Origin: a phage
Strand: one strand, 5' to 3'
Length of the DNA stretch: 64,000 nucleotides
Assembly: GCA_017822615.1 (NCBI GenBank)
Contig: GCA_017822615.1_4530.1
Each line of letters starts with the position of its first letter. The stretch's first letter is position 1. The notes below the pieces were generated by a model. That model saw only the letters and a list, made by a program, of their open reading frames with translations. It did not search any database and was not told where the DNA came from. The position numbers and the translations under genes were made by a program. Positions 5,656 through 34,400 of this stretch are shown here, one piece after another.

Positions 5656-5664
5656 GGAGTTATA

Positions 5665-6390: not shown

Positions 6391-6446
6391 TGTTGTAAGC
6401 CGCCCTTTATGGGCGGTAATGTGAGATGTATTAAATAGGAGGAAAC

Positions 6447-7325: not shown

Positions 7326-7329
7326 GTTC

Positions 7330-7382: not shown

Positions 7383-7397
7383 TTTTTAGGAGGCGTT

Positions 7398-7607: not shown

Positions 7608-7619
7608 TTAGGGGGAAAT

Positions 7620-8738: not shown

Positions 8739-9694
8739 GCAGATTAACAGAAGAGCAGAAAGCAGATATCCTTAGTATGAGTGCAGAGGGTATGTCTTCT
8801 CGCAATATTGCAGCAATTGTTTTAGGTAGTCCAACAAGAAAAAGCACAGTGAACGATTTCCTTGCACGATTCGGAGCAAGTAAACAAGAGCCAGTTAAAA
8901 AGAAACAACCAGTTATTAAAATTATTGATGTTGAAACTGCACCAGAGATTGCATATACTTTCCGTCGATTCAAAGCCTTCATTTCTCCAGATCAAGTAAT
9001 TCGTAGGGGTTATTTGTTATCTTACTCTTCTGCCGACCTGTATACTGGTGAAGTGGAAGGTAAGAACTTGTCTTCTTATCCTCTTTTTGATATTGATCAT
9101 ACAGATGATTGGGAGCTTTGCCAAGATCTTTGGAACCTTCTGAATGAGGCAGATGTAGTTGTGGCACACAACGGATATAAGTTTGACCGTGCATACATTA
9201 ACCAACGATTTGCATATCACGATATGGCTCCTCCTTCTAATTATGTAGTTGTTGATACATTGAAGGCAGCTAAGAAACAATTTGCACTTCCTTCCAACTC
9301 CCTTAAAGAAATGGGAGCATATTTCGAAACAGAAAGTGAAAAACTGGATAACGAGGGGTTCCCTTTATGGAAAGCATGTTGTGAAGGTGATCGTGATGCT
9401 TTTGAACGTATGCAGATTTACAATGATGGTGATGTTGTTTCGCTCCGTGATTTGTATATGAAAATCCTTCCGTGGATTCCACAGCATCCTAACTTATCCG
9501 CTTATTACACAGATGAGAAGGTCCGTTGTTCTCGTTGTGGCAGTGATCACGTTCACGTTGTTACTGGTAAACAATACCACACTGCGGTAAGTTCTTTCGA
9601 TATCATTCGTTGTGAATCTTGTGGAGGTTTGTCACGTAGTAGAGCAAACACCAGATCCAAAGATAAACGAGCAGCAACTATTATTGGAATCTAA
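8735..9694 (+). CDS. DnaQ-like 3'-5' exonuclease with N-terminal HTH and C-terminal Zn-ribbon
   Basis: Exo motifs IIDVETAP, AHNGYKFD, LRDLY; C-terminal CSRCG...CESCG. Confidence 0.6.
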   Translation: MSRLTEEQKADILSMSAEGMSSRNIAAIVLGSPTRKSTVNDFLARFGASKQEPVKKKQPVIKIIDVETAPEIAYTFRRFKAFISPDQVIRRGYLLSYSSADLYTGEVEGKNLSSYPLFDIDHTDDWELCQDLWNLLNEADVVVAHNGYKFDRAYINQRFAYHDMAPPSNYVVVDTLKAAKKQFALPSNSLKEMGAYFETESEKLDNEGFPLWKACCEGDRDAFERMQIYNDGDVVSLRDLYMKILPWIPQHPNLSAYYTDEKVRCSRCGSDHVHVVTGKQYHTAVSSFDIIRCESCGGLSRSRANTRSKDKRAATIIGI

Positions 9695-9700
9695 TAATCA

Positions 9701-9723
9701 GGGAGCTTATTGCTCCCTTTTTT
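9701..9723 (+). terminator. rho-independent terminator
   Basis: Hairpin gggagc-ttatt-gctccc followed by T6. Confidence 0.7.
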
Positions 9724-9724
9724 A

Positions 9725-9753
9725 TTGACAAAAATTTGATATTAGTGTATACT
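9725..9753 (+). promoter_or_regulatory. consensus sigma70 promoter
   Basis: TTGACA 9725-9730, 17-nt spacer, TATACT 9748-9753. Confidence 0.65.
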
Positions 9754-9780
9754 CTGCTAACCACAATAAAAGGAGGAAAT

Positions 9781-10008
9781 ATGAGCATTACATTAACAGG
9801 TAACGAAATTTTCGAACTGTTTGAAATGTTAGGTTTAAACTACACCATCGAGAAAGACCCAGATTTACTTGACGTTAAAATAACAATTCAAGAAGATACA
9901 GCAATCTACAATGATGATGGTGATGTTATCTATCAAGGTAGGGTAGCTTATTATACAGATTACCCAGAAGAAGGCGCAGTAGGAATTCAGGAGGAAAATT
10001 ATGTCTAA
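9781..10008 (+). CDS. hypothetical protein
   Basis: ATG 9781 after aaaggagg; track ORF 9736 overlaps the promoter, so the shorter start is preferred. Confidence 0.6.
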   Translation: MSITLTGNEIFELFEMLGLNYTIEKDPDLLDVKITIQEDTAIYNDDGDVIYQGRVAYYTDYPEEGAVGIQEENYV

Positions 10009-10402
10009 TGCTTTTGATAATCAGGTTGACGGTGATCACTACACAAAAATGGCAATGCAACCTATCGAACTAACTTATTTGGTTGGTGGCACACCTTGTT
10101 TTTGCAAATTGGCAAAATACGCAACACGTATTAAAGGTGAACGTCAGATTAACCTAGATAAAGCTATTCATTGTATCGAACTAGAAAGAACCCTTATGCA
10201 AAATAACACGTATATGGTTCGTGAAAATTATCCATCTATGACAAATGCAGCTAAACATGATCAAGCTATGCTTCTTATTGATTTCTTCACAAAAGATCCT
10301 TTAATCCGAGTGGCACTGAAACACATGTATAACTCTTCTTATGTAGATGCAGTTGAAGCTATTAAACAACTTAAGGAACGTATTAGTGGCGAGCAATACT
10401 AA
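10001..10402 (+). CDS. DUF3310-like protein
   Basis: GDHYTKMAMQPIE matches the G-x-HY...QPIE signature recalled for DUF3310. Confidence 0.55.
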   Translation: MSNAFDNQVDGDHYTKMAMQPIELTYLVGGTPCFCKLAKYATRIKGERQINLDKAIHCIELERTLMQNNTYMVRENYPSMTNAAKHDQAMLLIDFFTKDPLIRVALKHMYNSSYVDAVEAIKQLKERISGEQY

Positions 10403-10491
10403 ACAATATGGAGCAGGAGAAGTTTATAAAATATTCAACCGAAAAGGTGATAAACTTTTACTAACTTTGACTATTCCAGAAACAATGTGCA

Positions 10492-10520
10492 AGGCGGGGT
10501 TAGACCGCCTTTTGTTTTTT
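10492..10520 (+). terminator. rho-independent terminator
   Basis: Hairpin aggcgg...ccgcct followed by tttgtttttt. Confidence 0.65.
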
Positions 10521-10569
10521 AAACACAATATCCCACCAGGGGAATATACAGCTAAAAAGGTGAGCAATA

Positions 10570-11145
10570 TTGGCAGGTGAACCAAAAATAATGTGGGGTG
10601 AAGGAACACCCTGGAAAACACAAGCGGAATTTTATACTTATCTTAGAGGATGTTTTAGAAAAGCATGGATGAGACACCCTAATAAAATTAAGGTTATCAA
10701 TGCAAGGCGTTTTAAAGTTGATCGCGTAGATAAAGACGGCAATGTGATGATAGACAAGAAAACTGGAAAACCAAAACAAGTTTGGAATTGTGAGTGCGAA
10801 ATATGTGGACATAGAGGAGGAATGAAAGACTTCCAAGTGGATCATATTCACGCAGCAAAACAACTTCAATGTTTTGATGATATTCCTCTTTTTGTTTTCC
10901 GTTTAATCTATGTGAAAGAAGAAGATTTGCGAATGGTTTGTAAATTGTGCAACTCTATTCTTGCTTATGCAGACAAGCAAGGCATATCTTTTGAAGAAGC
11001 GAAAGCTGAAAAAGAAGCAATAGCTTTGTGTAGAGCTAAGAAAGATAAAGCTTGGTTGAAGAAGCGTAAAATAGAACCTGAAAGCACAGTAGCGAAACGC
11101 CGCAAACAAATAGTCAAAATCCTATTGCAGGAAATTGAAAGTTAG
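10570..11145 (+). CDS. HNH homing-type endonuclease
   Basis: CECEICGH...QVDHIHAA (Cys pair plus His-x-His); TTG start after aaggtga. Confidence 0.6.
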   Translation: MAGEPKIMWGEGTPWKTQAEFYTYLRGCFRKAWMRHPNKIKVINARRFKVDRVDKDGNVMIDKKTGKPKQVWNCECEICGHRGGMKDFQVDHIHAAKQLQCFDDIPLFVFRLIYVKEEDLRMVCKLCNSILAYADKQGISFEEAKAEKEAIALCRAKKDKAWLKKRKIEPESTVAKRRKQIVKILLQEIES

Positions 11146-11181
11146 TATAAGATAACTATACTAAAAGAGAGAGGAGGTTTT

Positions 11182-11791
11182 ATGCAGATAGTATGTGATT
11201 GGGATTTAGTTGTGGCTCCATTAGATGTTGCTTGGTTAGAATGGTTGAATAAGATTAGTGGACTTGGTGTTAAGATAGACACATTCACAAAAAAATGCAG
11301 ACTATGATCTTACCAACTACTTTCCTGGGTTCAGGGAGGAGTTCAATATAGATCCTTACGGATTTCTGGATAATCCTCATCTCTATGATACAATGGGTTT
11401 TGTTCCAGGTATGCCAGATTTCTTAAAGTATGTTTCAAGGAAAGGTAGCAATCTTTTGATCGCAAGTGTGACAAAAGGTGGTCACTTAAGTTCTAAACAT
11501 AAGCATGTTTTAAGAACGTTAGATACGATTGATTTTAGCAAAGGATCTGGTAACGGCTTTTTTGCTACGAAAGAAAAATACTTATTGCCTTGTGATATAG
11601 CAATAGATGACAGGGCTGATAACCTACTATATTTTCCAGATGAAGTGGTTAAAATATATTTTAATACGCCTTATAAAGATAACCATCTAGAAGAACTAAA
11701 GAAAAAACCAAATGTTGTGATCACAGGTTTAGAAGATCAGTGGCTAACATGTTTGGATGTTTTTAACACTTTGAACAATTTTAAAAACTAA
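11182..11791 (+). pseudogene. HAD-family 5'(3')-deoxyribonucleotidase interrupted by a +1 frameshift at an A7 run
   Basis: N-terminal ORF 11182-11307 carries DWDLV (HAD motif I); C-terminal frame (open from 11279, track ORF 11393..11791) carries IASVTKG and IDD. Frames differ by +1 at A7 11289-11295. Confidence 0.55.
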
Positions 11792-11800
11792 GGAGAAAAA

Positions 11801-12799
11801 ATGACAAAACAGATTTCGGCTAGTATTATTGCGCATTCCATCACTGAAGACGGAAAAGAGATTGTAACTTTTGAACTAGAGTATCCACGTATTATTCATT
11901 CAGAATTGATGACTCACCGCCTGTTCAGTCGTAATGCTGCTTCTAGCCGTGCTATACCTGTTAAAACACTGATTGAAATGGTGCGAAGTCAACCTGCTCG
12001 TCCTTATCGTTTTGGGGCTAACCAACCTGGTATGCAGGATAAAGGTGTTGACCATGATGCTCTTATTGATGCAGGTTATACTGCTCAAGAGTGGTGGGAT
12101 CTTGCCGCGCTTAGTGCAGCACGTTTTGCAGAAGAATTCTCTTTGGCAGGGTACCACAAACAAGTTGCAAACCGTCTTCTGGAACCTTTCCAACGAATTA
12201 AAACAGTTCTGACAGCAACAGAATATGAAAATTTCTGGTGGCTACGTGATGACAAAGAAGCCGATCCTACTATCGAGGCTTTGGCTAAAGAGATGCACAA
12301 AGAGTATGAAGAATCTACACCAGAAGTGCTGAAACCAGGGCAATGGCACACACCTTATGTAGACCATTTCTATGATAGTATTGGCACAGAAGGTGACGAT
12401 CATTTTGTTTTTGGTGGATACTATGTTCAAGATGAATCTGGAGAAGTTGTTGTGCTTACTTTGGAAGAAGCCAAAGCTATTTCAGCTTCGTGTTGTGCAC
12501 AGGTTAGCTATCGTCGTTTGAATGCAACTAAAGATAAAGCTTTAGATATCTATGGTCGTTTGCTAACTGGGCGCAAGGTTCATGCTTCTCCGTTTGAACA
12601 TCAAGCCACCCCAATGCAAGAAACATGCGAACAATACGGAGAGAACTGTTTTGAAGATTTGTTTATCAATGCTCCTTGGGATTTTAACTCTTGGGAACCA
12701 GGTATTACCCATGTAGATCGTAATGGTAAGTTTTGGTCTGGCAATTTCAAAGGCTGGATTCAACATCGTCAACTTTTAACAAATCATACTAAATGGTGA
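11801..12799 (+). CDS. thyX: flavin-dependent thymidylate synthase ThyX
   Basis: RHRLFSRNAASSRAIP matches the ThyX RHRxxSxxxxSxR signature; RBS aaggag. Confidence 0.9.
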   Translation: MTKQISASIIAHSITEDGKEIVTFELEYPRIIHSELMTHRLFSRNAASSRAIPVKTLIEMVRSQPARPYRFGANQPGMQDKGVDHDALIDAGYTAQEWWDLAALSAARFAEEFSLAGYHKQVANRLLEPFQRIKTVLTATEYENFWWLRDDKEADPTIEALAKEMHKEYEESTPEVLKPGQWHTPYVDHFYDSIGTEGDDHFVFGGYYVQDESGEVVVLTLEEAKAISASCCAQVSYRRLNATKDKALDIYGRLLTGRKVHASPFEHQATPMQETCEQYGENCFEDLFINAPWDFNSWEPGITHVDRNGKFWSGNFKGWIQHRQLLTNHTKW

Positions 12800-13575: not shown

Positions 13576-15822
13576 TTGATTCGTTTTGTAACTAAATCTA
13601 ACGGTAAGACAGAGGAGTTTAATCCAGAAAAACTTCGCAAGTGGTCTGAATTTGCAGCAGGTAAACTAAACTGGTCTGAAATTGAATTAGAAGCTGTGAA
13701 GCGGTGTTATGACGGTGTGTCTACACGTGATCTGCATAAAGCAATGATTGCAGCGTGTATTGACAAGAAAACACAAGCTTACAGTGATATGGCAGGAAGA
13801 CTTCTTCTGGGTATGATTTACAAACAGGCTCATGGGGGATACCACAGTATCCCTTCACTGAATACCTTTTATCATGATATGGTAGAACGTGGACATTGGG
13901 CTAAAATGGATTATACTGATGAAGAGATCAAAGAAATCGGTAAGATTGTAAAGCATAATAAAAATCTAACTTATGGTTATTCTGTTTTACGTCAGATGGT
14001 AGATAAATATCTTATTCGAGATGCAGTAAACGATGTGGTGCATGAGTCTCCACAGTTTCTTTTCATTGGTATCGCAATGAAGGTTATGGAGATCCAACCA
14101 AAAGAACGCCGTATAGAAGATATTAAAAAACTTTATACTTATGTTAGCGATCTTAAGATTAATCTGCCATCGCCGTATCTGACAACTCTACGAACTCCAA
14201 TCAAAGGAAGTGCGTCTTGTTGTTTGTTCCGTGCAGACGATACGGCAGAGTCTTTAGCCATTGCTAATTACTTAGCTCATGAGTATACGTTGAATAACGC
14301 AGGTATTGGTGTTAATCTTCAAACTCGTGCCACAGGTCAAGGTGTTAAGAATAATCGTATTATTCATGGTGGTCTTCTTCCATATCTGAAATGGATGGAA
14401 GATAGTGTTGGAGCTTCGAAGCAAGCAAGCCGTGGAGGTAGTGCTACAGTTACCTTTACCATACTTGAACCAGACTTCGACGATCTGATTCGACTGAAGA
14501 ATCCAACAACACCTATAGATAAACGAGTGGATAAACTAGATTATTCTATTGTTGTTAACCGTTCGTTCTTGCGTAGAGCAGCAAAAAACGAAGACTGGAT
14601 GTTAGTTAGTTGTGATGATGCTCCTGAACTTTATGAAGCCTTGTATAAAAGTGAAGAAGAGTTTGATGCAGTTTATGACAAAGTAAGCCGTCGTCGCATT
14701 AAGAAAAAATTTGTTAAGGCTCGTGATCTTCTGACAGAGATTATTGTTCAACGTGCAGAAACAGGACGTATTTACATGTTCTTTGCTGACAACGTTAACA
14801 ACCATACACCTTTCCTGGATACGGTGTATCAATCAAACCTGTGTCAAGAGATCTTCTTACCAACTAAAGCTTTCCACAGTATGCCGGATCTCTTTACTGG
14901 TGAGAATACAGAAGATCAAGAATTGGCTTTATGCTTCTTATCTTCTATTGTCGCTGGTCGTGTCTTACCTGAAGAATATGAGGATGTTGCATACTACACT
15001 GTATTGACAATTGACAACGTTATTGAAACAATGGATTATCCATTTAAACATAACGAAATAACTGCTAAAGCACGTAGATCTATTGGTGTAGGTATTACAA
15101 ACTTAGCGCATTATTTGGCAAGTAATTTTGTAAATTATTCAGATGCTTATGCTAAAAAATTAATGCATGAACTTGCAGAACGTCATTACTTTTGGTTGGC
15201 AAAAGCCTCTCTGCGTCTGGCTAAGGAAAAAGGTAATGCAGAATGGATCGATAAGACCAAATGGCCTCAAGGTTGGCTACCAATTGACACTTATGCTAAA
15301 ACAGTAGATAGTATCGGTAATTTTGATCTTAAAATGGACTGGGAAGGCTTACGTGCTGAAATCATTGAACAAGGTGGTATCCGTAACAGTGTCTTGGCTG
15401 CTATTGCACCTAATGAGTCCAGCAGTTTGGTAAGCAATACTACTAACTCTCTGTACCCTGTTCGTGATACTATTATGTATAAACAAAGTCAGAAAGGTAG
15501 CGTATTATTTATTGTTCCAGATTATGAAAAACTGAAAATGTTCTACCAGTCTGCCTGGGACACTCCGGCTAAAGATCTTGCAGAAATGTATGGTATCTTT
15601 ACCAAGTTTACGGACCAAGGAATTTCTTGTGATTCTTGGCTAGATTATTCTAAATTGGTAGGTGGACGTTTATCAGTGAAAGCTGAGATGCAGTTTATTC
15701 TGAATTTTGCTAGACTGGGTGGCAAGTCATTGTATTACCTTAACAGTAGAACAAAATCAGCAGACTCTTTAGCACAAGAAGATAACTTAAAAGAATCTGG
15801 TTGTGAAGGCTGCTCTATGTGA
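13576..15822 (+). CDS. nrdA: ribonucleotide reductase class Ia alpha subunit
   Basis: 748 aa; ATP-cone-like N-terminus; NLCQEIFL active-site motif; TTG start after gggaggag. Confidence 0.9.
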   Translation: MIRFVTKSNGKTEEFNPEKLRKWSEFAAGKLNWSEIELEAVKRCYDGVSTRDLHKAMIAACIDKKTQAYSDMAGRLLLGMIYKQAHGGYHSIPSLNTFYHDMVERGHWAKMDYTDEEIKEIGKIVKHNKNLTYGYSVLRQMVDKYLIRDAVNDVVHESPQFLFIGIAMKVMEIQPKERRIEDIKKLYTYVSDLKINLPSPYLTTLRTPIKGSASCCLFRADDTAESLAIANYLAHEYTLNNAGIGVNLQTRATGQGVKNNRIIHGGLLPYLKWMEDSVGASKQASRGGSATVTFTILEPDFDDLIRLKNPTTPIDKRVDKLDYSIVVNRSFLRRAAKNEDWMLVSCDDAPELYEALYKSEEEFDAVYDKVSRRRIKKKFVKARDLLTEIIVQRAETGRIYMFFADNVNNHTPFLDTVYQSNLCQEIFLPTKAFHSMPDLFTGENTEDQELALCFLSSIVAGRVLPEEYEDVAYYTVLTIDNVIETMDYPFKHNEITAKARRSIGVGITNLAHYLASNFVNYSDAYAKKLMHELAERHYFWLAKASLRLAKEKGNAEWIDKTKWPQGWLPIDTYAKTVDSIGNFDLKMDWEGLRAEIIEQGGIRNSVLAAIAPNESSSLVSNTTNSLYPVRDTIMYKQSQKGSVLFIVPDYEKLKMFYQSAWDTPAKDLAEMYGIFTKFTDQGISCDSWLDYSKLVGGRLSVKAEMQFILNFARLGGKSLYYLNSRTKSADSLAQEDNLKESGCEGCSM

Positions 15823-15828
15823 TATCAA

Positions 15829-15850
15829 GGGGCTTCGGCCCCTTTATTTT
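15829..15850 (+). terminator. rho-independent terminator (UUCG tetraloop)
   Basis: ggggcttcggcccc followed by tttatttt. Confidence 0.7.
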
Positions 15851-15863: not shown

Positions 15864-16202
15864 ATGGAAACATTAATAGTGTTACCAGGCGCATCACCTA
15901 TACATAAACGTGATGGAACCGTTATCTTGGTAGATTCCAAAGATTTTACTTTACATTGGTGTTGCAATTATATTGCTGCCTACCAACTTAGGGATATACA
16001 AATATGGGCTTCTGATGATCCTAGTGCAACGGCTTTTGCATTAGGTAGAGCAAGATCAGAAAATAACATAACAATAATCTTAACTAAAAGTGTATGGGAT
16101 GGTCTAGAAGGTGTTTATAAGATAGACGGAGCAAGCGAAGAAGATATTGCAGAACTTAAAAGCATGTGTTATATAGTGGAGGACTTAAATGGCAGCAATT
16201 AA
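15864..16202 (+). CDS. hypothetical protein between nrdA and nrdB
   Basis: ORF track; RBS aaggag. Confidence 0.6.
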   Translation: METLIVLPGASPIHKRDGTVILVDSKDFTLHWCCNYIAAYQLRDIQIWASDDPSATAFALGRARSENNITIILTKSVWDGLEGVYKIDGASEEDIAELKSMCYIVEDLNGSN

Positions 16203-17277
16203 TTTACACAATGAAGTTTACAAAACAGGAAAATATCCAGTATTTTTGGGGGAGCAATTAGGGATCTTTGATTCTGTTAACGTAACTTATCCAGAAATGC
16301 ACAAACTCTACAAACTTCAAAAAGCACAAGATTGGGATGAGAATGAAGTCAATCTGGATCAGACACGTAAAGATTTCGTAGCTTGTTCTAAAAACAACTA
16401 TGATGTTATGATTAAAAACTTATCGTTCCAATGGGAAAATGATTCTCTTGCAAAATCAATCATCACTTTGTTCTCTCCATTTTTGAGTAACAATGAAGCC
16501 TGTGCTATGATGATGAAGCAGAGTGAAATGGAAGTTCTCCATGCGTTAACGTATTCTGAAATAATCCGTCAATGTACTCCAGATCCAATTGAAGTCATCA
16601 ATCAGATTATGATTAATGATAAAATTTTCAATCGTATGGGTATCATTGCTGATATCATGGGTCAGTTGGAAGAAGCTGGTCATAAGTATGCTCTAGGATT
16701 GATTGAAGCTAACGATGAACTTCGACTGCTGATTCTTAAAGGGATGGTAGCCCTGATTGGATTAGAAGGTATTCAGTTTATATCTTCCTTCTCTGCTACT
16801 TTTGCTATGGCAGAACAACAACTGTTTGTTGGGGCTTGTAAACTGATCCAGAAAATTATGCTAGATGAAATCTTGCATGTTAAGATGGATTATGCTGTAA
16901 TTGATGCATTGATGCATGACCCAATTTGGCGTAAAATTTACGAAGACAATATTGAAGAGTTGACTTTGATCCTCGACACTGTTGTTGAACAAGAGGAACA
17001 GTGGTGTGACTACCTGTTTAGTGAAGGTCGTTTTATTGTAGGTCTTAACGCCGAATTGTCTAAACAGTGGGTTTATTTCAATGCTGCTCCTATTTATCGT
17101 CGATTGAAAATGAAAGCCAAGTTTAAAGCACCTAAACATAGCCCTTTAGCTTGGATGGAAAAATGGTTGAATCCTGATTTGATTCAGTCAGCAGCCCAAG
17201 AGATTCAGTTAACTAACTACAAATTGAATTCAGCTAACAAAGATCTCTCTGATGATGAGGAGCTTGACTTCGAATGA
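16189..17277 (+). CDS. nrdB: ribonucleotide reductase class Ia beta subunit
   Basis: 362 aa; E-x-x-H motifs (MEVLHALTYSEII); follows nrdA. Confidence 0.85.
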   Translation: MAAINLHNEVYKTGKYPVFLGEQLGIFDSVNVTYPEMHKLYKLQKAQDWDENEVNLDQTRKDFVACSKNNYDVMIKNLSFQWENDSLAKSIITLFSPFLSNNEACAMMMKQSEMEVLHALTYSEIIRQCTPDPIEVINQIMINDKIFNRMGIIADIMGQLEEAGHKYALGLIEANDELRLLILKGMVALIGLEGIQFISSFSATFAMAEQQLFVGACKLIQKIMLDEILHVKMDYAVIDALMHDPIWRKIYEDNIEELTLILDTVVEQEEQWCDYLFSEGRFIVGLNAELSKQWVYFNAAPIYRRLKMKAKFKAPKHSPLAWMEKWLNPDLIQSAAQEIQLTNYKLNSANKDLSDDEELDFE

Positions 17278-17483
17278 TTTTGAAATGTGTTGGTATAATC
17301 GACACATTCAAAGACGTTTTTGATAAAGGGGCTTCTTATGAAGCCTCTGAAATGAAGAATGGTTTTTGTGATGTATTCGGTAAACGCCTGAAGAAAAACG
17401 GCGATCCTTGGCTAGGAGTTATGTCTTGTGGTCATATTATTGTAAATGGTGTTGCCAAATTTGAAATAATTAAGGAGGAATAG
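17274..17483 (+). CDS. hypothetical protein
   Basis: ORF track; overlapping stop/start. Confidence 0.5.
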   Translation: MILKCVGIIDTFKDVFDKGASYEASEMKNGFCDVFGKRLKKNGDPWLGVMSCGHIIVNGVAKFEIIKEE

Positions 17484-17635
17484 TGGCTGAAAAACTTATT
17501 TTTTGTCCTGTGTGCGGTGGGACGGGACAGATGGAAGTGGAAATTATGGTAACATTTCCTTGCCTGAATTGTCATGGTGAGGGACGAGTAGTAGTCTTTG
17601 AAAAAGAAGGGTTGGAGGTAGAAGATGGAGAGTGA
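17483..17635 (+). CDS. small zinc-ribbon protein (50 aa)
   Basis: GTG after ttaaggagg; CPVCGG...CLNCHG; not in track. Confidence 0.4.
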   Translation: MAEKLIFCPVCGGTGQMEVEIMVTFPCLNCHGEGRVVVFEKEGLEVEDGE

Positions 17636-17789
17636 AAAAGAGTATGTTCGCATTCCACGAGAATTAACAGATCACATTGCAGAAGCAATAGCTTTCGAAG
17701 CTAGATGTTGTGGAGGCATTGCTTACAATATTTATGAAGCAATTATTAAAGCTGCTCAAGAAGAGGAGGAGATGAAAAATGGGTATTGA
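17625..17789 (+). CDS. small hypothetical protein (54 aa)
   Basis: ATG after ggaggtagaag; not in track. Confidence 0.3.
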   Translation: MESEKEYVRIPRELTDHIAEAIAFEARCCGGIAYNIYEAIIKAAQEEEEMKNGY

Positions 17790-18105
17790 TATCGAATGGC
17801 GTATGTTACAGGGTGCACCTTTAAATAAGTGGGAAGAGGCTGTAGGAGAAGATCCTAGAATTGAAGAAGAATTTGACGGAGATTTTAACTGGTTCTTACA
17901 AGAAGGTCTTGACTTAAGCCGCATCTCTCCTTTCTACGATGCGGATGAGTCTTATTGCATATATGGCCTTGATTTAGAAGGCGGAGAAGGAAGCATAGCT
18001 GTAGATCTTGAGCAATTGAATGAGAATGCAAAAGAAGCCTATGCAAAGCTACTTGAAAAATATAACATTAAAACGGAAACTATTATTTCTCAACATGTCT
18101 GGTAA
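17779..18105 (+). CDS. hypothetical acidic protein
   Basis: ORF track. Confidence 0.55.
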   Translation: MGIDIEWRMLQGAPLNKWEEAVGEDPRIEEEFDGDFNWFLQEGLDLSRISPFYDADESYCIYGLDLEGGEGSIAVDLEQLNENAKEAYAKLLEKYNIKTETIISQHVW

Positions 18106-18114
18106 GGAGAACTG

Positions 18115-19107
18115 ATGCGCTATCTGGTAACAGGTGGTCTTGGTTTTATTGGGAGTGCCGTGGTGCGCTCTCTTTGTCAAGATCCCAATAACGAAGTTTT
18201 TGTCGTTGATAAGATGGGCTATGCAGCAGATATTGAGAATGTAGGCGATATCACTCACGTTAAACTGAGCATAACAGATTTGGCAAACGAAACCCAGGTC
18301 AAAAGTTTAGTAGTAGAGTGCAATCCCGATTTCATCATTCACTTAGCGGCAGAGAGTCATGTGGATAATTCTATCAAGAATCCACGAGTTTTCATCGACT
18401 CCAATATTATTGGTACATACAATTTATTGGAAGCTGCAAGGCTCCTCCCAAAAAATAAACTTAAGATGTTCGTACATGTCTCCACAGACGAAGTGTACGG
18501 CGATATGGCAGACTCTGGCGTTCCCTTTACCGAAGAGACAGCTTATGCCCCTTCAAGCCCGTACAGTGCGTCTAAGGCAGCATCTGACCATCTTGTGAAA
18601 GCTTGGTACCGTACCTACGGTTTACCTGTTGTGATAACCAACTGCTCCAATAACTTTGGACCTTATCAACATCCAGAAAAGCTGATCCCAAAAATCATCA
18701 CAAGTATCTTGACGAATAAAGAGATTCCGGTGTATGGTAAAGGCGATCAGGTGCGAGACTGGCTTTTTGTTGAGGATCATGCGCGAGCTATTCTTCAAGT
18801 GGCAACAGGTGGAGAACCAGGTCAAACGTATAATGTTGGAACACGTAATCCCAAAACCAATATGGAGATCATCTATATGGTTTGTGACTACATGGATGCT
18901 GTACATCCAGAAGCAGGAACCTACCCTTCTTCCAACTTGATAACTTTTGTTGAAGATCGTAAAGGACATGACTTGCGTTATGAAATCAATCCTTCTAAAA
19001 TAGAGTCTGAACTGGGTTGGAGTGCAAACTCTACATTTGAACAAGATCTCTACTCAACGATTGAATGGTACTTAAACAACCCTCAATGGTGGAGTGAGAA
19101 GATTTAA
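18115..19107 (+). CDS. rmlB: dTDP-glucose 4,6-dehydratase
   Basis: [15 protein letters not shown]-binding motif; YSASKAASD (YxxxK). Confidence 0.9.
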
Positions 19108-19115
19108 GGAGGGTT

Positions 19116-19994
19116 ATGAAAGGTATTATTTTGGCGGGAGGAAGTGGAACCCGCCTTCATCCGGTAACACGCAGTGTGAGCAAGCAATTGCTCCCTGTGT
19201 ATGACAAACCCATGATCTACTACCCTTTATCGGTATTGATGTTGGCTGACATTAAGGATATCTTAATCATCACCACACCAGGCGATCAGGAAGACTTTGA
19301 GTATCTTCTTGGAGATGGGTCTATGTTTGGGATAAAACTCACTTACGCAATCCAATCCAAGCCACGAGGTCTTGCGGACGCTTTCATCATCGGTAAAGAT
19401 TTTATCGGAGAAGACTCTGTTGCTCTTATTTTAGGTGACAACCTATTCTTCGGACAAAGCTTTGGTAAACTACTGATTGACGCTAGTGAGATGGTAGATG
19501 TTTGGGGCGGAGCTTGTATCTTCGGGTGTTTGGTGAAAGATCCTGAACGATTCGGTGTGGTTGAATTTGGGAGTAATCGTCAAGTTATTTCTATTGAAGA
19601 GAAACCTGAAAATCCTAAATCAGATTATGCTGTCACAGGTTTGTATTTCTATGATAACTCTGTTATTCAACGTGCATTAGAAGTAACCCCTTCCGCGCGT
19701 GGAGAACTGGAGATCACTGATATCAATCGCAGCTACCTCGAAGACAGGAAGTTACAAGTGGAAGTTCTCGGACGAGGATTTACTTGGCTTGACACAGGAA
19801 CACACGCCAGTCTGATGGAAGCTGGTCAATTCGTGCAGACTATTGAGAACTGTCAAGGATTGAAGATTGCGTGCCTGGAAGAAATTGCTTTCAAAAAAGG
19901 GTGGATTTCTTTAGAGACTTTGGTCTACCATGGAAACTCACTGAAGAAAACAGAGTACGGGCAATACCTACTCAAATTAGCGGAGGGAAAATGA
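19116..19994 (+). CDS. rmlA: glucose-1-phosphate thymidylyltransferase
   Basis: [18 protein letters not shown] nucleotidyltransferase signature. Confidence 0.9.
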
Positions 19995-20557
19995 AAGTAG
20001 AAAAAACAAAAATTGAAGGTGCGGTAATTATCAAACCAGACGTTTATAAAGACGACCGTGGTTTCTTTTTAGAAACATATAATGAACAAAAATACGAAGA
20101 TATCATTGGTAGACAAACTTTCGTTCAAGATAACATGTCTAAATCAAACTTCGGTGTTTTGCGAGGAATGCACTTTCAAACAAATAATCCGCAAGGTAAG
20201 CTTGTTCGTTGTGTAAGTGGTGAAGTATTGGATTTCGCTGTAGACTTACGTAAAGATAGTCCTACTTACGGTGCTTGGGACGGTGTTGTTCTTCGTGCAC
20301 GACACCATACGCAGTTTTGGCTTCCACCTGGTTTGGCACATGGTTTTATAGTTTTGAGTATGGATGCTATCTTTGAATACAAATGCACAACTCCATACGA
20401 CCCTTCTAGTGAAGAAAGTTTACGTTGGGATGATCCTGATATAGGGATCGATTGGGGCTTCGATATGATTTTTGATGAAGGTTTTAAACCTATCCTATCA
20501 ACAAAAGATGCAATGGCTAAATCTTTTCAACAGTTACGTAGCGAGGGTGTATGCTAA
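19991..20557 (+). CDS. rmlC: dTDP-4-dehydrorhamnose 3,5-epimerase
   Basis: [10 protein letters not shown] and GVLRGMHFQ cupin motifs; ATG 19991 after ggaggg. Confidence 0.85.
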
Positions 20558-21393
20558 CATATCTGGTATTGGGTGGTAATGGACAACTGGGACAAGCTTT
20601 ACGTAAAGTTGCCCCTGCAAATGTATCTTTAATTTATCCTAAAGAACGTGTAGATATTACAAATTTTGAAGCTGTGCGAAACGCTATTGTTGAAGATTAT
20701 GTAGATGGTGTTATTAATTGCGCCGCTTATACGGCTGTAGATAAAGCCGAACAAGATTTTGCTACTGCTTTGGCTGTTAATGCTTATGGCCCTGCAAATA
20801 TTGCGGCAGTGTGCAGCAAACTTAAAATTGATTTTGTGCATATTTCCACAGACTATATTTTTAATTATTCTCATCCTATTTTTGAAGACACTACACCTAA
20901 CCCAATAAACAATTATGGGTATACGAAAGAACTTGGTGAAAAAATGGTGCGAGGAGTTAACCCAAATGCATATATTATTCGAACAGCCTCGGTATATAGC
21001 GAATTTGGAAATAACTTTCTAAAAACTATGTTGTCTCGCTATAATGATGGACAACGTGATTTTATTATTGTTGCTGATCAGTTCTCTTGTCCAACATATG
21101 CTCCAGATTTAGCAGAAGCTATTTTTGAAGTATTAAAAACAGGTTGGTCAAGGTCTGTTAAGACTTACCATTTTGCAGGAAGCCATCTTATTTCTTGGGC
21201 GGAGTTTGCGGAAAAGATCTTGACACAGATGCCAGAACCTGTTAAGATATCGGCGGTATCAGCTTCAACCTATAATGCTCCAGCAGCACGTCCGGTGAAG
21301 TCACAACTAGTAACCAGTCACTATCTTACAAAATCAGATTTAAATAAAGGTATTGAACAGTCTTTAGCAGTATTACTTAATAAGGAGAGGTAA
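20551..21393 (+). CDS. rmlD: dTDP-4-dehydrorhamnose reductase
   Basis: LVLGGNGQLGQAL Rossmann start; completes the rml gene set. Confidence 0.8.
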   Translation: MLTYLVLGGNGQLGQALRKVAPANVSLIYPKERVDITNFEAVRNAIVEDYVDGVINCAAYTAVDKAEQDFATALAVNAYGPANIAAVCSKLKIDFVHISTDYIFNYSHPIFEDTTPNPINNYGYTKELGEKMVRGVNPNAYIIRTASVYSEFGNNFLKTMLSRYNDGQRDFIIVADQFSCPTYAPDLAEAIFEVLKTGWSRSVKTYHFAGSHLISWAEFAEKILTQMPEPVKISAVSASTYNAPAARPVKSQLVTSHYLTKSDLNKGIEQSLAVLLNKER

Positions 21394-21653
21394 TGGAATT
21401 TGTAATTTTTGGTAAACCTAACTGTCAATTTTGTGAAATGTCAAAACAACTATTGACTATGCGCAATAAACAGTTTGAATATTTAAGTCTTGACCAAGAC
21501 TATGATTTAGAATCAATGACTAAAACAGTTGTTGATCTTACCGGAGTTCCTCCACGCACATTTCCACAAATTCTGTCTGAAGTGAACGGGGAGGTAACAT
21601 ACGTAGGCGGTTTTACCGAACTGCGTGATCTCATGGCTCAAATTGCGGAGTAA
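21393..21653 (+). CDS. glutaredoxin/NrdH-like redoxin
   Basis: 86 aa; CQFC active-site motif near N-terminus. Confidence 0.7.
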   Translation: MEFVIFGKPNCQFCEMSKQLLTMRNKQFEYLSLDQDYDLESMTKTVVDLTGVPPRTFPQILSEVNGEVTYVGGFTELRDLMAQIAE

Positions 21654-21658
21654 CAATT

Positions 21659-21808
21659 ATGAAAAGTAAACAGAAACGTAAGATCTTTTCTCGTGCTTTG
21701 GCAAATGAGCTGAAGTCCAACATAAAGAAAACGAAACCAAAACGTGAAACTTCTCCAGAACATCTGTTGTTTAATGAGTTGGATCACGGAGTAGGAGACG
21801 ACGAATAG
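21659..21808 (+). CDS. small basic protein (49 aa)
   Basis: ATG after gcggag; not in track. Confidence 0.3.
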   Translation: MKSKQKRKIFSRALANELKSNIKKTKPKRETSPEHLLFNELDHGVGDDE

Positions 21809-21815
21809 GAAGTAA

Positions 21816-22316
21816 ATGGCTAAAGTAGTAGATGAGTTTGATATGCTACGAGTCGATGAAGGACTGAAGCTTACTGTTTACCAAGATCATCTTGGTTATT
21901 GGACAGTTGGCATAGGACACCTTCTGACTAAAATAAAAGATAAAGCAAAGGCTATTCAAATCTTAGATAATCTCCTTGGTCGTAAGACCAATGGAGTTAT
22001 CACAGAAAAAGAAGCCCGTCAAATCTTTGCTGACGATGTTGCAAAAGTGAAGAGAGACATAAAAAACAGTGCTATCTTATCACCAATCTATGATAAGGTG
22101 AGTGATACTCGTAAATTGGGAATAATCAACATGGTTTTCCAGTTGGGGTTAAAAGGTGCTGAAGGGTTTAAAAATAGCTTGACTTTAATCAGCAATGCAT
22201 ATTATACTCAAGCAGGTAAAAACATGCGTAAAAGCCGATGGTATAGCCAAACGCCAAACCGTGCTGAACGAGTAATTAAAGTTCTGACTTCTGGAACTTT
22301 AGATGCTTACAACTAA
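21816..22316 (+). CDS. e: T4 e-type lysozyme (GH24 endolysin)
   Basis: LRVDEGLKLTVYQDHLGYWTVGIGHLL and SRWYSQTPNRAERVIKVLTSGTLDAY closely resemble T4 lysozyme. Confidence 0.9.
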   Translation: MAKVVDEFDMLRVDEGLKLTVYQDHLGYWTVGIGHLLTKIKDKAKAIQILDNLLGRKTNGVITEKEARQIFADDVAKVKRDIKNSAILSPIYDKVSDTRKLGIINMVFQLGLKGAEGFKNSLTLISNAYYTQAGKNMRKSRWYSQTPNRAERVIKVLTSGTLDAYN

Positions 22317-22353
22317 TAAAGGGGCTTCGGCCCCTTCTAAAAGGAGTGCTACT

Positions 22354-23112
22354 ATGGGAAATAAAACCGCAGCTAAAACACAACGGCAGAAACTGGCTAA
22401 TTCAGCAAAGATTGAAAGCCGTTATGCAGCAAAAGCGGTAGGTAATGACGATTACCGTTTAGATGAATTTATGCCTGAAGGGGACCAAAATAAGATTGTT
22501 CAAAGCATGATTTGGAATGATCTGACTGTTGTAAATGCTCCGGCAGGGACTGGTAAAACCTCTGTTGCTTTATGGAAAGCTTTGCAGATGCTTCGTTCAG
22601 GAGACTTCCGTAAACTACTTTTTATCAAGAACCCTACTGAAGTCGGAGATGATCAGATTGGTTTCTTGTCTGGAGATAAAACAGATAAACTAGCAGCACA
22701 CTATGAATCTACAAAACGTATTTTCCAGCAATTCATGACAGCCAACAAATTGGAAAACGATATTGGATCAGGTAAGATCGAATTGAATATTCCTAACTAT
22801 TTGTTGGGGGCCACCTTGGATAATACAATCGTCATTATTGACGAAGCACAACTTATGTCAACAGAAACACTTAAACTTCTTATTGAACGTGCAGGTATTA
22901 ATACGCATGTTATTGTATTAGGCGATGTTCGCCAGACATATGCAATTAAAAAACGTAGCAATGGTCTGCATCAAATTTTGGAACTTTTATATCCAGAAAA
23001 TGAAGAAGGTGTTCGTGAGCCAATTGTAGATTTTATTGGATACGTTGAACTGACAACGGACGATAATAAACGTGGACGTTTGTCTAAACTGATTACTGAA
23101 GTGTTTGTTTAA
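22354..23112 (+). CDS. phoH: PhoH-like ATPase
   Basis: Walker A NAPAGTGKT; ATG 22354 after aaaaggag. Confidence 0.85.
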   Translation: MGNKTAAKTQRQKLANSAKIESRYAAKAVGNDDYRLDEFMPEGDQNKIVQSMIWNDLTVVNAPAGTGKTSVALWKALQMLRSGDFRKLLFIKNPTEVGDDQIGFLSGDKTDKLAAHYESTKRIFQQFMTANKLENDIGSGKIELNIPNYLLGATLDNTIVIIDEAQLMSTETLKLLIERAGINTHVIVLGDVRQTYAIKKRSNGLHQILELLYPENEEGVREPIVDFIGYVELTTDDNKRGRLSKLITEVFV

Positions 23113-23147
23113 TAATGTGGCAGGGAAGCCATTTATAAGGAGGATTG

Positions 23148-23648
23148 ATGGGTGTAGCAACAATAGCTATCGGAAGAAGCGGTATAGATGAGTGCTATCA
23201 AACGGGACTCGTAAAACCTAACGAATTTCGTCAAATTTGTGTAAACCATATTGAAAAAGAGATTGCTCTTACTTTAGAGAATATGACCCTCCGAGATAAA
23301 CTGGAAATGTTTAAATGTTGGTGTCTAGGAGAAGATTGGCTTTTAAACCATTTTCAAGAACTTTCTGATAGTAAAGAAAGCTTGTTTGATTGTATAATAG
23401 GAATAGCTGGCTCCGATCCTAGCCTTCTGCACATAACAGAAGAAGAGGCGAAGTTACTGTTCTTAAGTAATTTGTTTAATAAGAAAGCACTGCTTGTTCG
23501 TGATTGTAGTGATCTTCTTAATAACCCGCTCGCAACGTCTGATCAAATTTTTGTTGACAAAGAGACACTACGTGCGATAGAATACATCTGCAAATATGTG
23601 AATGGCGGGAAAGCGGTTCTTAAAACATTAACAGAGGAGGAAGAATAG
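23148..23648 (+). CDS. hypothetical protein
   Basis: ORF track; RBS aggagg. Confidence 0.55.
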   Translation: MGVATIAIGRSGIDECYQTGLVKPNEFRQICVNHIEKEIALTLENMTLRDKLEMFKCWCLGEDWLLNHFQELSDSKESLFDCIIGIAGSDPSLLHITEEEAKLLFLSNLFNKKALLVRDCSDLLNNPLATSDQIFVDKETLRAIEYICKYVNGGKAVLKTLTEEEE

Positions 23649-24340
23649 TGACGACAATTATTGCAACCAAAAATAAGATTTTGAGTGACGGTAAGGTAAC
23701 TTTTGGTGGACGTGTAGATTCTATTAATTTCAAAAAGGTCCGAAAAATTGGAGATTACCTTGTAGGTGGTGCTGGTCGTCTGACCTCCGTGCTTTCTTTC
23801 TTTCAATGGTTTGAACAAAATCTACAGTGCGAAGCAGCACGTGATGCTGTCCCTGGTTTGATGATTCACTCTGATCCAGACAAAGAAGATGAAGAGTTTA
23901 TTGCACTTGTTGTTCATCCAGACGGACGTATTTTCCTGCATGAAGGTAACAACCCAACACGTGCATATCCGATTGATGAAGAATATTATGCAGTAGGAAG
24001 TGGGTCAGATTTTGCTTTAGCTGCTCTTGACGCAGGGGCAACACCAGAACAAGCTATGGAAGTAGCTAAAAAGCGAGATGCTTTTTCTGGTGGTGAAACA
24101 TTTGTTGAAGAACAAGATGAGATTATTGAATTAACAGACGATGATTTAGAAAACTTCTCCAAAGAAGAATTAATCAATCTTTTGAAATTCGGTAATCCCT
24201 ACGGTGAAGAAGAACCTCGTAACGTGGCAGGTAACGAGGCGGATACTGAAGAAAAATCTGTTGCAGAAAACAACTTGACTTCTAAATCTGAAAATATTAA
24301 TCTCGTAAATGTGGCGGATTTCGAAGGAACCGCTATTTAA
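23648..24340 (+). CDS. HslV-like N-terminal-nucleophile peptidase with acidic C-terminal extension
   Basis: MTTIIAT...KKVRKIGDYLVGGAG...AVGSGSDFALAALDAG aligns with E. coli HslV (MTTIVSV...KKVRRL...AGFAGG...AIGSGGPYAQAAA); Thr at position 2. Confidence 0.7.
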   Translation: MTTIIATKNKILSDGKVTFGGRVDSINFKKVRKIGDYLVGGAGRLTSVLSFFQWFEQNLQCEAARDAVPGLMIHSDPDKEDEEFIALVVHPDGRIFLHEGNNPTRAYPIDEEYYAVGSGSDFALAALDAGATPEQAMEVAKKRDAFSGGETFVEEQDEIIELTDDDLENFSKEELINLLKFGNPYGEEEPRNVAGNEADTEEKSVAENNLTSKSENINLVNVADFEGTAI

Positions 24341-24346
24341 CAAACT

Positions 24347-24366
24347 GCCCCTTCGGGGGCATTTCT
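24347..24366 (+). terminator. terminator-like hairpin (UUCG tetraloop)
   Basis: gccccttcgggggc followed by atttctt. Confidence 0.55.
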
Positions 24367-29339: not shown

Positions 29340-29520
29340 AACAGTAGAAGAAGCCGTAAAAGCAGCTTATGAGGCTTTAGCGGAAGCAGAGCAGTTAGCA
29401 GATGAGACTGGTAAAGGTTTCCGTTTCTCCCCTGAGTATGGGATGGGTGGTTATTATGATCCAGAAGACGAAAATGAGAACACTGGAACAAATTGGCATC
29501 CATCTTCTTTAAGTTGTTAA
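29323..29520 (+). CDS. small acidic protein, W-x-SSS-C C-terminal family member 1
   Basis: C-terminus ...TNWHPSSLSC. Confidence 0.5.
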   Translation: MTTKFKTVEEAVKAAYEALAEAEQLADETGKGFRFSPEYGMGGYYDPEDENENTGTNWHPSSLSC

Positions 29521-29531
29521 TAGGAGGTAAA

Positions 29532-29801
29532 GTGGGAATCGAAGATATCAAAGGTTATAAACCGCATACCGATGACAAAATTGGTAAAGTGAATGCTATT
29601 AAAGATGCTGAAGTTCGATTAGGATTAATCTTTGATGCTCTAATGTCTGAATTGTGGGCTGAACTGGATGATTGTGAAGATTTGGAAGAGTCTACCAATA
29701 TATCCACCCGCCTTGACCAAATTTCAATAGCAAAGACTAAGTTGAAAGAAGCTTCTATGTGGGCCTGTCGTTCCGTTTTCCAACCAGAGGAGAAATACTA
29801 A
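29532..29801 (+). CDS. hypothetical protein
   Basis: GTG 29532 after taggagg (track start 29493). Confidence 0.5.
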   Translation: MGIEDIKGYKPHTDDKIGKVNAIKDAEVRLGLIFDALMSELWAELDDCEDLEESTNISTRLDQISIAKTKLKEASMWACRSVFQPEEKY

Positions 29802-31333: not shown

Positions 31334-31334
31334 T

Positions 31335-31730
31335 ATGTGTGGATATCTTTCAGAAAGTTATTTCAAAGTGACGCATGAGGATTTAGAAAAAGCACGATTG
31401 AAACTGACAGCTATTATTGAATACTCTAATACTGTTGATCACAGATTAAAGACTACTAAAGTATCTGTTCCTTGTTGGTTAGGTTTACGGCATAAAATAA
31501 TGTCTCAACATGACCATGTTGTTCGAGAGATGCATGGTTGGTGTTGGTTTCACGATGTGGCTCTGCATTTTGGTTATATTACAGAAGAAGAGCATAGATT
31601 CTGTGAACTAACATATCGTATTCCAACCCTTCACGATTTAGATTTGTGGAAGAAAGCAAACGAGATTTTTCTTACAGAAAGTGATTGGCGTAAAGTTATG
31701 GCTTGTCTTGAATGGAGGGGTAATGAGTAA
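31335..31730 (+). CDS. hypothetical protein
   Basis: ATG 31335 after aggagg (track start 31317). Confidence 0.55.
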   Translation: MCGYLSESYFKVTHEDLEKARLKLTAIIEYSNTVDHRLKTTKVSVPCWLGLRHKIMSQHDHVVREMHGWCWFHDVALHFGYITEEEHRFCELTYRIPTLHDLDLWKKANEIFLTESDWRKVMACLEWRGNE

Positions 31731-34391: not shown

Positions 34392-34400
34392 ACCACTCAA

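Follow-up and report, generated by a model that had tools for sequence, protein, structure and literature searches.

In bacteria, the thymidine diphosphate (dTDP)-L-rhamnose pathway is encoded by rmlBACD (rfbBDAC). Genes of the same four families, with the conserved motifs and the operon arrangement of the bacterial set, lie at positions 18115-21393 of the phage DNA considered here, a stretch of 64,000 nucleotides (GenBank assembly GCA_017822615.1, contig GCA_017822615.1_4530.1) that is referred to below as the window. The phage set differs from its bacterial counterparts in being placed inside a ribonucleotide-reductase/glutaredoxin block of a lytic phage and not in an O-antigen or capsule locus, in encoding proteins that are 41–69% identical to the best bacterial copies, and in lacking Wzx/Wzy-type partners. 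The explanation preferred here, tentatively, is that a rhamnose donor made by the phage serves a glycosyltransferase (GT) module that the phage itself encodes, and that this module acts on an acceptor other than DNA. RmlBACD would convert glucose-1-phosphate and dTTP to dTDP-L-rhamnose in the infected cell, from genes transcribed together with the phage nucleotide-metabolism genes, and the phage would thus supply itself with an activated sugar missing from many E. coli hosts. The donor would be used by four soluble GTs encoded about 70 kb away, outside the window, and this module would build a rhamnose-containing glycan on the non-DNA acceptor. The activity of the enzymes, the use of dTDP-rhamnose by the GTs and the nature of the acceptor are points that we infer.

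Several described systems resemble parts of this proposal. Phage T4 places glucose on 5-hydroxymethylcytosine (5hmC) and phage RB69 places arabinose on 5-hydroxycytosine (5hoC). The α- and β-GTs of T4 and the arabinosyl-5-hydroxycytosine systems of RB69 and DLP3, which use several GTs, are examples of lytic-phage GTs that modify a macromolecule (PMC13326640), and RB69-type phages encode their own uridine diphosphate (UDP)-arabinose genes (PMC13326640), comparable to rml here. The T4 and RB69 systems need a phage ThyA homolog to form 5hmC or 5hoC and yield restriction-resistant DNA, whereas here no such homolog was found among the proteins scanned and relatives of the phage are restriction-sensitive. 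In gtrABC-type O-antigen modification by temperate phages, phage genes alter the surface glycans of the host. Gtr systems consist of membrane proteins that use undecaprenyl-phosphate-glucose in the periplasm; in contrast, the GTs considered here are all soluble and have no membrane partner.

Virus-encoded donor pathways that serve the particle itself are known from giant viruses. Mimivirus, with UDP-L-rhamnose, and the chloroviruses, with guanosine diphosphate (GDP)-linked sugars and A64R, combine a donor pathway with GTs that decorate particle proteins. Their hosts are eukaryotic, their donors UDP- or GDP-linked and their enzymes unrelated, and the analogy is mechanistic only. Among mycobacteriophages, Che8 and Rita (cluster F1) carry glycans attached to the capsid protein, according to a passage of PMC11256854. 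The GTs of such Che8-type systems are soluble phage proteins, as they are here; the similarity of one of the present enzymes, GT3, to mycobacteriophage GTs is remote and partial, and the matching mycobacteriophage genes are not confirmed as those that glycosylate Che8. We know of no sugar-nucleotide pathway encoded by Che8-type mycobacteriophages themselves.

The rml genes of Phapecoctavirus and its relatives

The identity of each Rml protein was judged by the curated equivalog cut-off of its NCBIfam family, and all four proteins score above it, as members of a complete dTDP-L-rhamnose pathway. On the + strand, rmlB (18115..19107, 330 aa, dTDP-D-glucose 4,6-dehydratase) reaches 429.8 bits against TIGR01181 (cut-off 365.1), rmlA (19116..19994, 292 aa, glucose-1-phosphate thymidylyltransferase) 459.5 bits against TIGR01207 (cut-off 360.65), rmlC (19991..20557, 188 aa, dTDP-4-dehydrorhamnose 3,5-epimerase) 223.5 bits against TIGR01221 (cut-off 155.75) and rmlD (20551..21393, 280 aa, dTDP-4-dehydrorhamnose reductase) 238 bits against TIGR01214 (cut-off 224.05). 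Pfam concurs for all four open reading frames (ORFs), with matches of RmlB to GDP_Man_Dehyd and Epimerase, of RmlA to NTP_transferase (7.5e-73) and of RmlD to RmlD_sub_bind (1.2e-73). Since four neighbouring genes belong to one pathway, with E-values from 1e-66 to 1e-138, a chance assignment is excluded.

Catalytic or cofactor motifs are present in each of RmlA, RmlB, RmlC and RmlD, where the roles of the residues are those that we assume from solved enzymes. The translation of rmlB contains the GxxGxxG motif (GGLGFIGS), VSTDE and the Tyr-x3-Lys motif (YSASK), and that of rmlA contains GGSGTRL. RmlC aligns with Salmonella RmlC (1dzr, E = 4e-56) and has identical residues within the segments RGMHFQ (RGLHFQ in 1dzr), QGKLVRC, EYK (LYK in 1dzr) and KDA, which we take to be the sites of the catalytic His, Lys, Tyr and Asp. 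RmlD aligns with the RmlD structure 3sc6 (E = 3e-44), with conserved GxxGxxG, ISTDY and Tyr-x3-Lys (YGYTK). The four genes form an intact pathway set, which confirms what an earlier note, made on this DNA from its letters, had claimed about a complete rmlBACD in a phage. The encoded pathway is very likely to be functional.

The genes are co-directional in the order B-A-C-D. A gap of 8 nt separates rmlB from rmlA, and overlaps of 4 nt (rmlA-rmlC), 7 nt (rmlC-rmlD) and 1 nt (rmlD and the following glutaredoxin-like gene) join the remaining members. A ribosome-binding site (RBS), AAGGAG, lies 7 nt upstream of rmlB. The ORF listed by the program for rmlC spans 19871-20557, with a GTG start at 19871, and the TIGR01221 match begins at its residue 42. 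Because an ATG at 19991 overlaps the rmlA stop codon as ATGA and has a GGAGGG RBS just upstream, the true span of rmlC is taken as 19991-20557.

The source phage belongs to Phapecoctavirus (Stephanstirmvirinae), a group of E. coli phages. Positions 17000-23000 of the window are 99.8% identical to Escherichia phage ESCO13 and 98–99% identical to dozens of other Phapecoctavirus genomes. The rml cluster is already annotated by name in more than 100 public genomes, including the phi92 record (Justusliebigvirus, NC_023693.1), in which rmlB-A-C-D is placed between nrdB and a thioredoxin-like gene. It was discussed by Olsen et al. 2020 (PMC7552041), who proposed DNA glycosylation as its role, and by Maffei et al. 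2021 (PMC8594841). The cluster is thus known and routinely annotated in Phapecoctavirus and Justusliebigvirus, and the copies in phAPEC8, ESCO13, phi92 and other Stephanstirmvirinae are essentially the same feature, with no substantive difference. What is new here is the explicit pairing with a module of four GTs, the presence/absence polymorphism of rmlBA and the arguments against a DNA acceptor.

Six records with related sequences (MG065645.1, MG065656.1, MG065689.1, OR584014.1, MG065650.1 and OP562383.1) bear the names of Campylobacter, Acinetobacter or Pseudomonas phages. MG065650.1 and OP562383.1 are up to 99–100% identical to the window, and others of the six group with phi92-type E. coli Stephanstirmvirinae (about 62–81%). 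Either these host names are open to doubt or the host range is exceptionally broad.

Between the window and phi92, the Rml proteins are 54–72% identical, NrdB 84%, and lysozyme and PhoH 76–78%. In a comparison with 80 bacterial loci, chosen by RmlA similarity, the identity between the Phapecoctavirus and phi92 copies exceeds that to the best bacterial copy for all four Rml proteins: 62.5% versus 53–55% for RmlB, 71.5% versus 68–69% for RmlA, 62.4% versus 55–61% for RmlC and 54% versus 41% for RmlD. The dN/dS ratio of rmlD, 0.28, is a sign of purifying selection; rmlB, rmlA and rmlC are saturated at synonymous sites. The pattern is consistent with a single old acquisition, after which the genes evolved fairly fast but under constraint. 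The best bacterial matches of RmlA, at 60–68% identity, are scattered over Marinomonas, Raoultella, Thauera, Acinetobacter, Streptococcus and others, and given this taxonomic scatter no recent bacterial donor can be named. A recent pick-up from the host was rejected as well, since the phage copies cluster together and lie far from the models of enterobacterial subfamilies, the match to one of these, PRK10084, reaching only 400 bits against a cut-off of 649. The G+C content is 42.4% over 18001-20000, which covers rmlB and rmlA, and 37–38% in the flanking 2-kb bins; the raised value would fit a foreign origin with incomplete adaptation to the composition of the phage.

Both rmlC and rmlD are present in every relative inspected, whereas a cassette of about 1.87 kb comprising rmlB and rmlA (18111..19981) is cleanly absent from some Phapecoctavirus genomes. 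In a blastn search with positions 16000-23000, phage nepoznato aligns to 16185-18110 and 19982-23000 contiguously, and the junction falls exactly between two RBSs (3990-4001 of the retrieved nepoznato stretch). In this phage the p108 homolog is directly followed by rmlC, whose product is 98.9% identical. The phage collection holds 48 records with RmlA at 95% identity or more, compared with 65 for RmlC, so that roughly a quarter of Phapecoctavirus records would be rmlCD-only. In Klebsiella phage phi1_175008, which belongs to the subfamily, the interval from nrdB to the thioredoxin-like gene contains rmlC and rmlD but neither rmlB nor rmlA (22307-23715 of the retrieved stretch). No genome with rmlBA and without rmlCD was seen among the relatives inspected. 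Enterobacterales make dTDP-4-keto-6-deoxy-glucose via RffH and RffG for enterobacterial common antigen (ECA). This host route would supply the intermediate and thereby explain why rmlCD is found in all relatives inspected and rmlBA is sometimes missing. The presence in all of these relatives of the last two steps, which the host does not reliably supply, argues that the selected product really is dTDP-L-rhamnose.

Some rml genes also occur in unrelated phages: rmlC and rmlB in Synechococcus phages S-B05 and S-B43, rmlA and rmlC in Sphingomonas phage PAU, and rmlA in Citrobacter phage Tr1. These records (MK799832.1, MN018232.1, JQ362498.1 and OR515479.1) are absent among the matches listed for GT1, one of the enzymes described below.

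The glycosyltransferase module and its probable link to rml

The window represents about 43% of the genome when mapped onto a relative. The earlier note had seen no GT in it, and a tblastn search of the window with the four Phapecoctavirus GTs bears this out, with a best E-value of 1.1. A GT partner, the lack of which in the genome the note had named as grounds for refutation, does exist in relatives, as four adjacent GT genes outside the window, and these GT-bearing relatives share the window sequence at about 92–99% over the aligned parts. In OR062524.1 the four genes lie between the endolysin and primase/helicase genes, at a distance of about 70 kb from rml, and share the strand of the replication genes; four adjacent GT genes are likewise found between endolysin and primase/helicase in phi92. 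In order of transcription, the products in OR062524.1 are GT4 (187 aa), GT3 (227 aa), GT2 (315 aa) and GT1 (314 aa), and they are the only glycosyltransferases annotated in the genome. All show strong matches to PHROG glycosyltransferase families and Pfam matches below threshold only, and no sequence relatives were found among solved structures. GT1 and GT2 are paralogs with 42% identity, and GT3 carries an invariant FIFDDD motif and a YGxED motif. None of the four contains a transmembrane-type segment (maximum Kyte-Doolittle average of 1.65 in 19-residue windows).

The module is read as two small enzymes of the GT-A fold and two GT4-type enzymes of the GT-B fold, and the AlphaFold (AF2) models of one of each kind, built on alignments of database homologs, are confident. 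The model of GT3, with a mean predicted confidence (pLDDT) of 87, is a minimal GT-A fold. Its best match among solved structures is the viral GT A197 of Sulfolobus turreted icosahedral virus (STIV), followed by collagen, mucin and teichoic-acid GTs; among viral models, it groups with generic GT2- and GT25-like proteins, and GTs associated with TET enzymes (TAGTs) appear at ranks 23-24. The model of GT1 (pLDDT 94) is a GT4-type GT-B fold that resembles PglA, GlgM, BshA, MshA, GtfC/Gtf3 and SdgB, and the α- and β-GTs of T4 are absent from its top 50 structural matches.

Beyond its own family, GT3 has sequence relatives only among mycobacteriophage GTs (about 254 records), a group that includes cluster F1, with 26–29% identity over residues 26-156 (~130 aa) and E-values of about 1e-7. 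Homologs of GT3 together with GT2 (34–51% identity) occur in small temperate-type phages near lysis, terminase or portal genes, with no rml nearby. P22-like and lambdoid contigs have the pair adjoining lysis, terminase or portal genes, and a prophage of Serratia sp. M24T3 has GT4, GT3 and GT2 between the lysis cassette and the terminase/capsid genes. Judged by this distribution, the module looks mobile among phages. The GT-homolog spans in four retrieved temperate-phage stretches are 5589-7670, 9394-10969, 6636-8211 and 10001-12019. In Klebsiella phage phi1_175008 the GT locus holds a GT4-like and one GT2-like gene only (4409-5951 of the retrieved stretch), and a GT3-like gene is relocated to an early region of small genes (5063-5695 of the retrieved stretch). 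In OR062524.1, a Ter-type cluster lies past the endolysin beside the GT block (109205-119702); it encodes TerD, a von Willebrand factor A (vWA)-TerF-like protein, an annotated TerC, a ComF-like phosphoribosyltransferase (PRTase), a Macro domain, an SprT-like protein and a haloacid dehalogenase (HAD)-like hydrolase, the last below the Pfam cut-off.

The distributions of the two gene sets were compared in the phage collection. RmlC matches 169 phage records, with 65 at 95% identity or more, 65 at 60–80% and 39 below 60%. GT1 matches 138 records, with 65 at 95% or more, 6 at 80–90%, 57 at 60–80% and 10 below 60%, and GT3 matches the same Stephanstirmvirinae set in addition to the distant mycobacteriophage GTs. 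Records named Escherichia phage number 106–107 for each of RmlC, GT1 and GT3. Vequintavirus, which is represented in the collection by FV3 and APECc02 among others, is absent among the matches listed for the three proteins. Annotation notes of phi92 equate its NrdB and thioredoxin with gp139 and gp141 of PVP-SE1, and the genes flanking its GT block with gp006 and gp008; by this backbone correspondence, the rml and GT blocks are both insertions specific to the subfamily. The closely matching distributions across the subfamily are suggestive of a functional pair.

Several points weigh against such a pairing. Shared presence within one subfamily amounts to essentially one evolutionary event, and about 70 kb separates the two clusters. 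The occurrence of the GT module in small temperate phages without nearby rml implies that a phage-made donor is not intrinsically needed, and the GT folds do not reveal donor specificity. The rml pathway probably feeds the phage GT module.

Candidate acceptors of the rhamnose

The earlier note had named three possible sinks for the sugar: phage DNA, virion proteins and host surface polysaccharide. The first is disfavoured because of the restriction sensitivity of phi92-like relatives with the same genes, the lack of a hydroxymethylase or TET enzyme among the proteins scanned and GT folds unlike those of T4; virion protein and host glycan remain. There is good reason for confidence that bulk DNA is not the acceptor. 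A virion protein is cautiously favoured in its place, with a host lipid-linked envelope glycan as a close second. That a lineage of lytic coliphages coats its virion proteins with a rhamnose glycan by means of a four-enzyme module is conceivable, if somewhat doubtful. The similarity of GT3 to mycobacteriophage GTs, its best structural match to the viral A197 of STIV, and the lysis, terminase and portal genes that neighbour its homologs hint weakly at a virion target, and GT1 resembles, among others, enzymes that glycosylate proteins or protein-glycan precursors.

A number of observations speak against a virion glycan of rhamnose. Rhamnose has no experimental demonstration in these phages, and no literature report of glycosylated Stephanstirmvirinae virions was found. 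Only the nucleotide-binding half of the GT-A fold is involved in the likeness of GT3 to mycobacteriophage GTs, and the major capsid, decoration, tube and sheath proteins lack a Ser/Thr-rich tail of the kind expected of an acceptor. Both the rml and the GT clusters are located among early or middle replication and nucleotide genes and not among late structural genes. In lambdoid contigs, the GT module is found between antiterminator and lysis genes, a typical site of lysogenic conversion, which favours a role at the host surface. JEP7, an E. coli myovirus, showed no glycoprotein staining (PMC12894461); its genus is not established, and it is not used as evidence here.

A role at the host surface would mean that the phage GTs add rhamnose to a lipid-linked or lipopolysaccharide (LPS)-core acceptor at the inner membrane face, which is rather unlikely. 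The outcome, an altered or blocked O-antigen, ECA or core with, for example, superinfection exclusion or less sticking of progeny to debris, is to be regarded with equal reserve. The GT4-type GT-B fold of GT1 suits such a role, being like that of PglA and PimA, anchor-free enzymes that act on lipid-linked acceptors, and so do the conversion-gene positions of the GT3 and GT2 pair, in the antiterminator-lysis interval of lambdoid phages and at the flank of the lysis cassette in the Serratia prophage. However, the GTs have no flippase, polymerase, ligase or membrane protein as a partner. It also counts against this role that the phages known to modify O-antigen are temperate and do so with membrane Gtr proteins or acetyltransferases. 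Gtr-type membrane proteins were not found: none of the four GTs has a transmembrane-like window, and the genome contains no Gtr-like annotation. Adsorption of these phages does rely on surface glycans (PMC8594841; PMC11990801), but it is not evident what a strictly lytic phage would gain within its short cycle. In a variant of this explanation, RmlC and RmlD would merely drain the ECA precursor dTDP-4-keto-6-deoxy-glucose. The rmlCD-only variants must indeed use this host pool; a pure drain, however, leaves unexplained why most genomes retain rmlB and rmlA, which add to the pool.

Transfer of rhamnose to a hydroxylated base of phage DNA, the role that Olsen et al. proposed, is improbable. Both gene clusters do lie among nucleotide-metabolism and replication genes, and RB69-type phages provide a precedent for a phage sugar-nucleotide pathway with several GTs that act on DNA (PMC13326640). 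GT3 has a sub-threshold match to the TAGT family PF20691 (19.2 bits versus a cut-off of 27.5) and a weak match to the PHROG of β-glucosyl-HMC α-glucosyltransferase, where HMC stands for hydroxymethylcytosine; these TAGT and HMC-GT matches span about 40 residues. In the viral fold search, GT3 has TAGT-domain proteins at ranks 23-24, and its R...DDD...ED pattern is as described for phage DNA GT-A enzymes, but it is also common to GT-A enzymes generally. The fold neighbours of GT3 are generic GT-A enzymes, and the GT-B fold of GT1 is not T4-like. Small lambdoid and P22-like phages have the module too, and the parts of their contigs examined show no base-hydroxylating gene.

Restriction sensitivity and the set of scanned enzymes also argue against this sink. 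Maffei et al. described Vequintavirinae and phi92-like phages as "exceptionally susceptible" to restriction-modification "despite a putative dTDP glycosylation machinery" and concluded that such phages lack effective protection from restriction (PMC8594841). Against phi92-like phages with these genes, restriction systems of types I, II and III are all exceptionally effective (PMC8594841), and such sensitivity is also reported for some Stephanstirmvirinae (PMC10844046). Known glycosylation of DNA requires a base hydroxyl, which is introduced by a TET-type dioxygenase or by a hydroxymethylase or hydroxylase of the ThyA type (PMC13326640). The proteins scanned from the window and the genome, a set that takes in part of the small ORFs, include neither a ThyA-type enzyme nor a TET/JBP oxygenase, and thus no base-hydroxylating route is seen in the scanned set. 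Near the GT block no oxygenases were found; the enzymes there are Ter-type, PRTase, Macro and HAD proteins. These phages are not mentioned in the DNA-modification papers PMC13390438, PMC13326640 and bioRxiv 2023.12.21.572611, the last including its supplement. Sparse or sequence-specific rhamnosylation of DNA that has so far escaped restriction assays would be a less likely case than a virion glycan.

Two genes were considered and rejected as routes to a hydroxylated base. The only thymidylate-synthase-like gene encodes ThyX; more than 1000 phage records share it, Vequintavirus, ICP1 and N4-like phages among them, and it was set aside as a generic gene of many unrelated phage groups. The second is an ORF at 31723-32406 (+, 227 aa) that resembles C5-cytosine methyltransferases and in this respect favours a DNA sink; it has FDGSG, PPC and ENPVG motifs and belongs to PHROG 757 ("DNA methyltransferase"), with no Pfam match. 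It was rejected for want of a dioxygenase-like neighbour. Its neighbours are ORFs at 30392-31333 (DUF7275/DUF7277), 31317-31730, 32406-33059 and 33118-33591, in which no Pfam function and no HxD motif was found.

Least probable of all is the lack of any dedicated phage sink, with rml as an auxiliary metabolic cassette that supports or disturbs the dTDP-sugar pools of the host and the distant GTs as unrelated enzymes with other donors: the distance of about 70 kb, the GT modules without rml in other phages, and Synechococcus S-B05 and Sphingomonas PAU, which carry rml and are not matched by the GT1 query, are in keeping with it, but rml is retained throughout the subfamily down to about 55–72% identity with intact motifs, which implies a selected function, the four GTs are the only annotated glycosyltransferases of the genome, and we know of no role for dTDP-rhamnose except as a glycosyl donor.

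Gene neighbourhood and biological meaning

The surroundings of rml agree with the placement between nrdB and glutaredoxin/lysozyme given in the earlier note, as judged by Pfam and NCBIfam matches. Upstream, NrdA (13576-15822) and NrdB (16189-17277) are followed by four small ORFs and then by rml. Downstream, a glutaredoxin-like protein (21393..21653, +, 86 aa; Pfam Glutaredoxin 38.1 bits, cut-off 22.9) precedes a T4-type lysozyme (21816-22316). The interval 18115-21653 given in that note for the pathway therefore needs trimming: the pathway proper is 18115-21393, and the last 260 bases belong to the glutaredoxin gene, which is outside the rhamnose pathway. According to the phi92 annotation notes, the glutaredoxin ortholog of PVP-SE1 is located next but one to NrdB, which identifies this gene as part of the ribonucleotide-reductase backbone. 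No strong terminator-like site was found on the + strand between 15827-15844, just after nrdA, and 24346-24361, and it is reasonable on this basis to regard rml and the nucleotide-metabolism genes as one co-directional unit.

Other features of the window were noted in passing. For an ORF at 23648-24340 (+), the ESCO13 and phi92 annotations give an HslV-family peptidase. The ORF at 29493-29801 (+, 102 aa) contains an Acb2/Tad1 hairpin domain (PF24729, 70 bits), and its product is likely a sponge for cyclic-nucleotide immune signals, directed against the cyclic-oligonucleotide-based anti-phage signalling system (CBASS) or against Thoeris. A Sir2-family protein (PF02146, 74.5 bits) is encoded at 33591-34391 (+). 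The GC skew changes sign at about 34000-35000, where gene orientation flips from + to -, and again near 52000; these changes probably mark the boundaries of divergent transcription blocks.

The presence of rml in this phage is unsurprising as a sequence feature, and the genuine and testable question is what becomes rhamnosylated. A whole coliphage subfamily of broad host range keeps about 6.5 kb for a sugar donor and four GTs, and variants that naturally lack rmlBA, together with the well-delimited GT module, offer a clean genetic handle on the reason. An envelope target, if true, would make this a lytic phage that manipulates receptors in a new way. A glycan on the virion would be, as far as we know, the first described for a phage of a Gram-negative host. 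Many Stephanstirmvirinae coliphages are candidates for phage therapy, and a virion target would affect the immune recognition and the gut behaviour of these phages, with possible effects on mucus binding, antibody recognition and the pharmacology of phage therapy.

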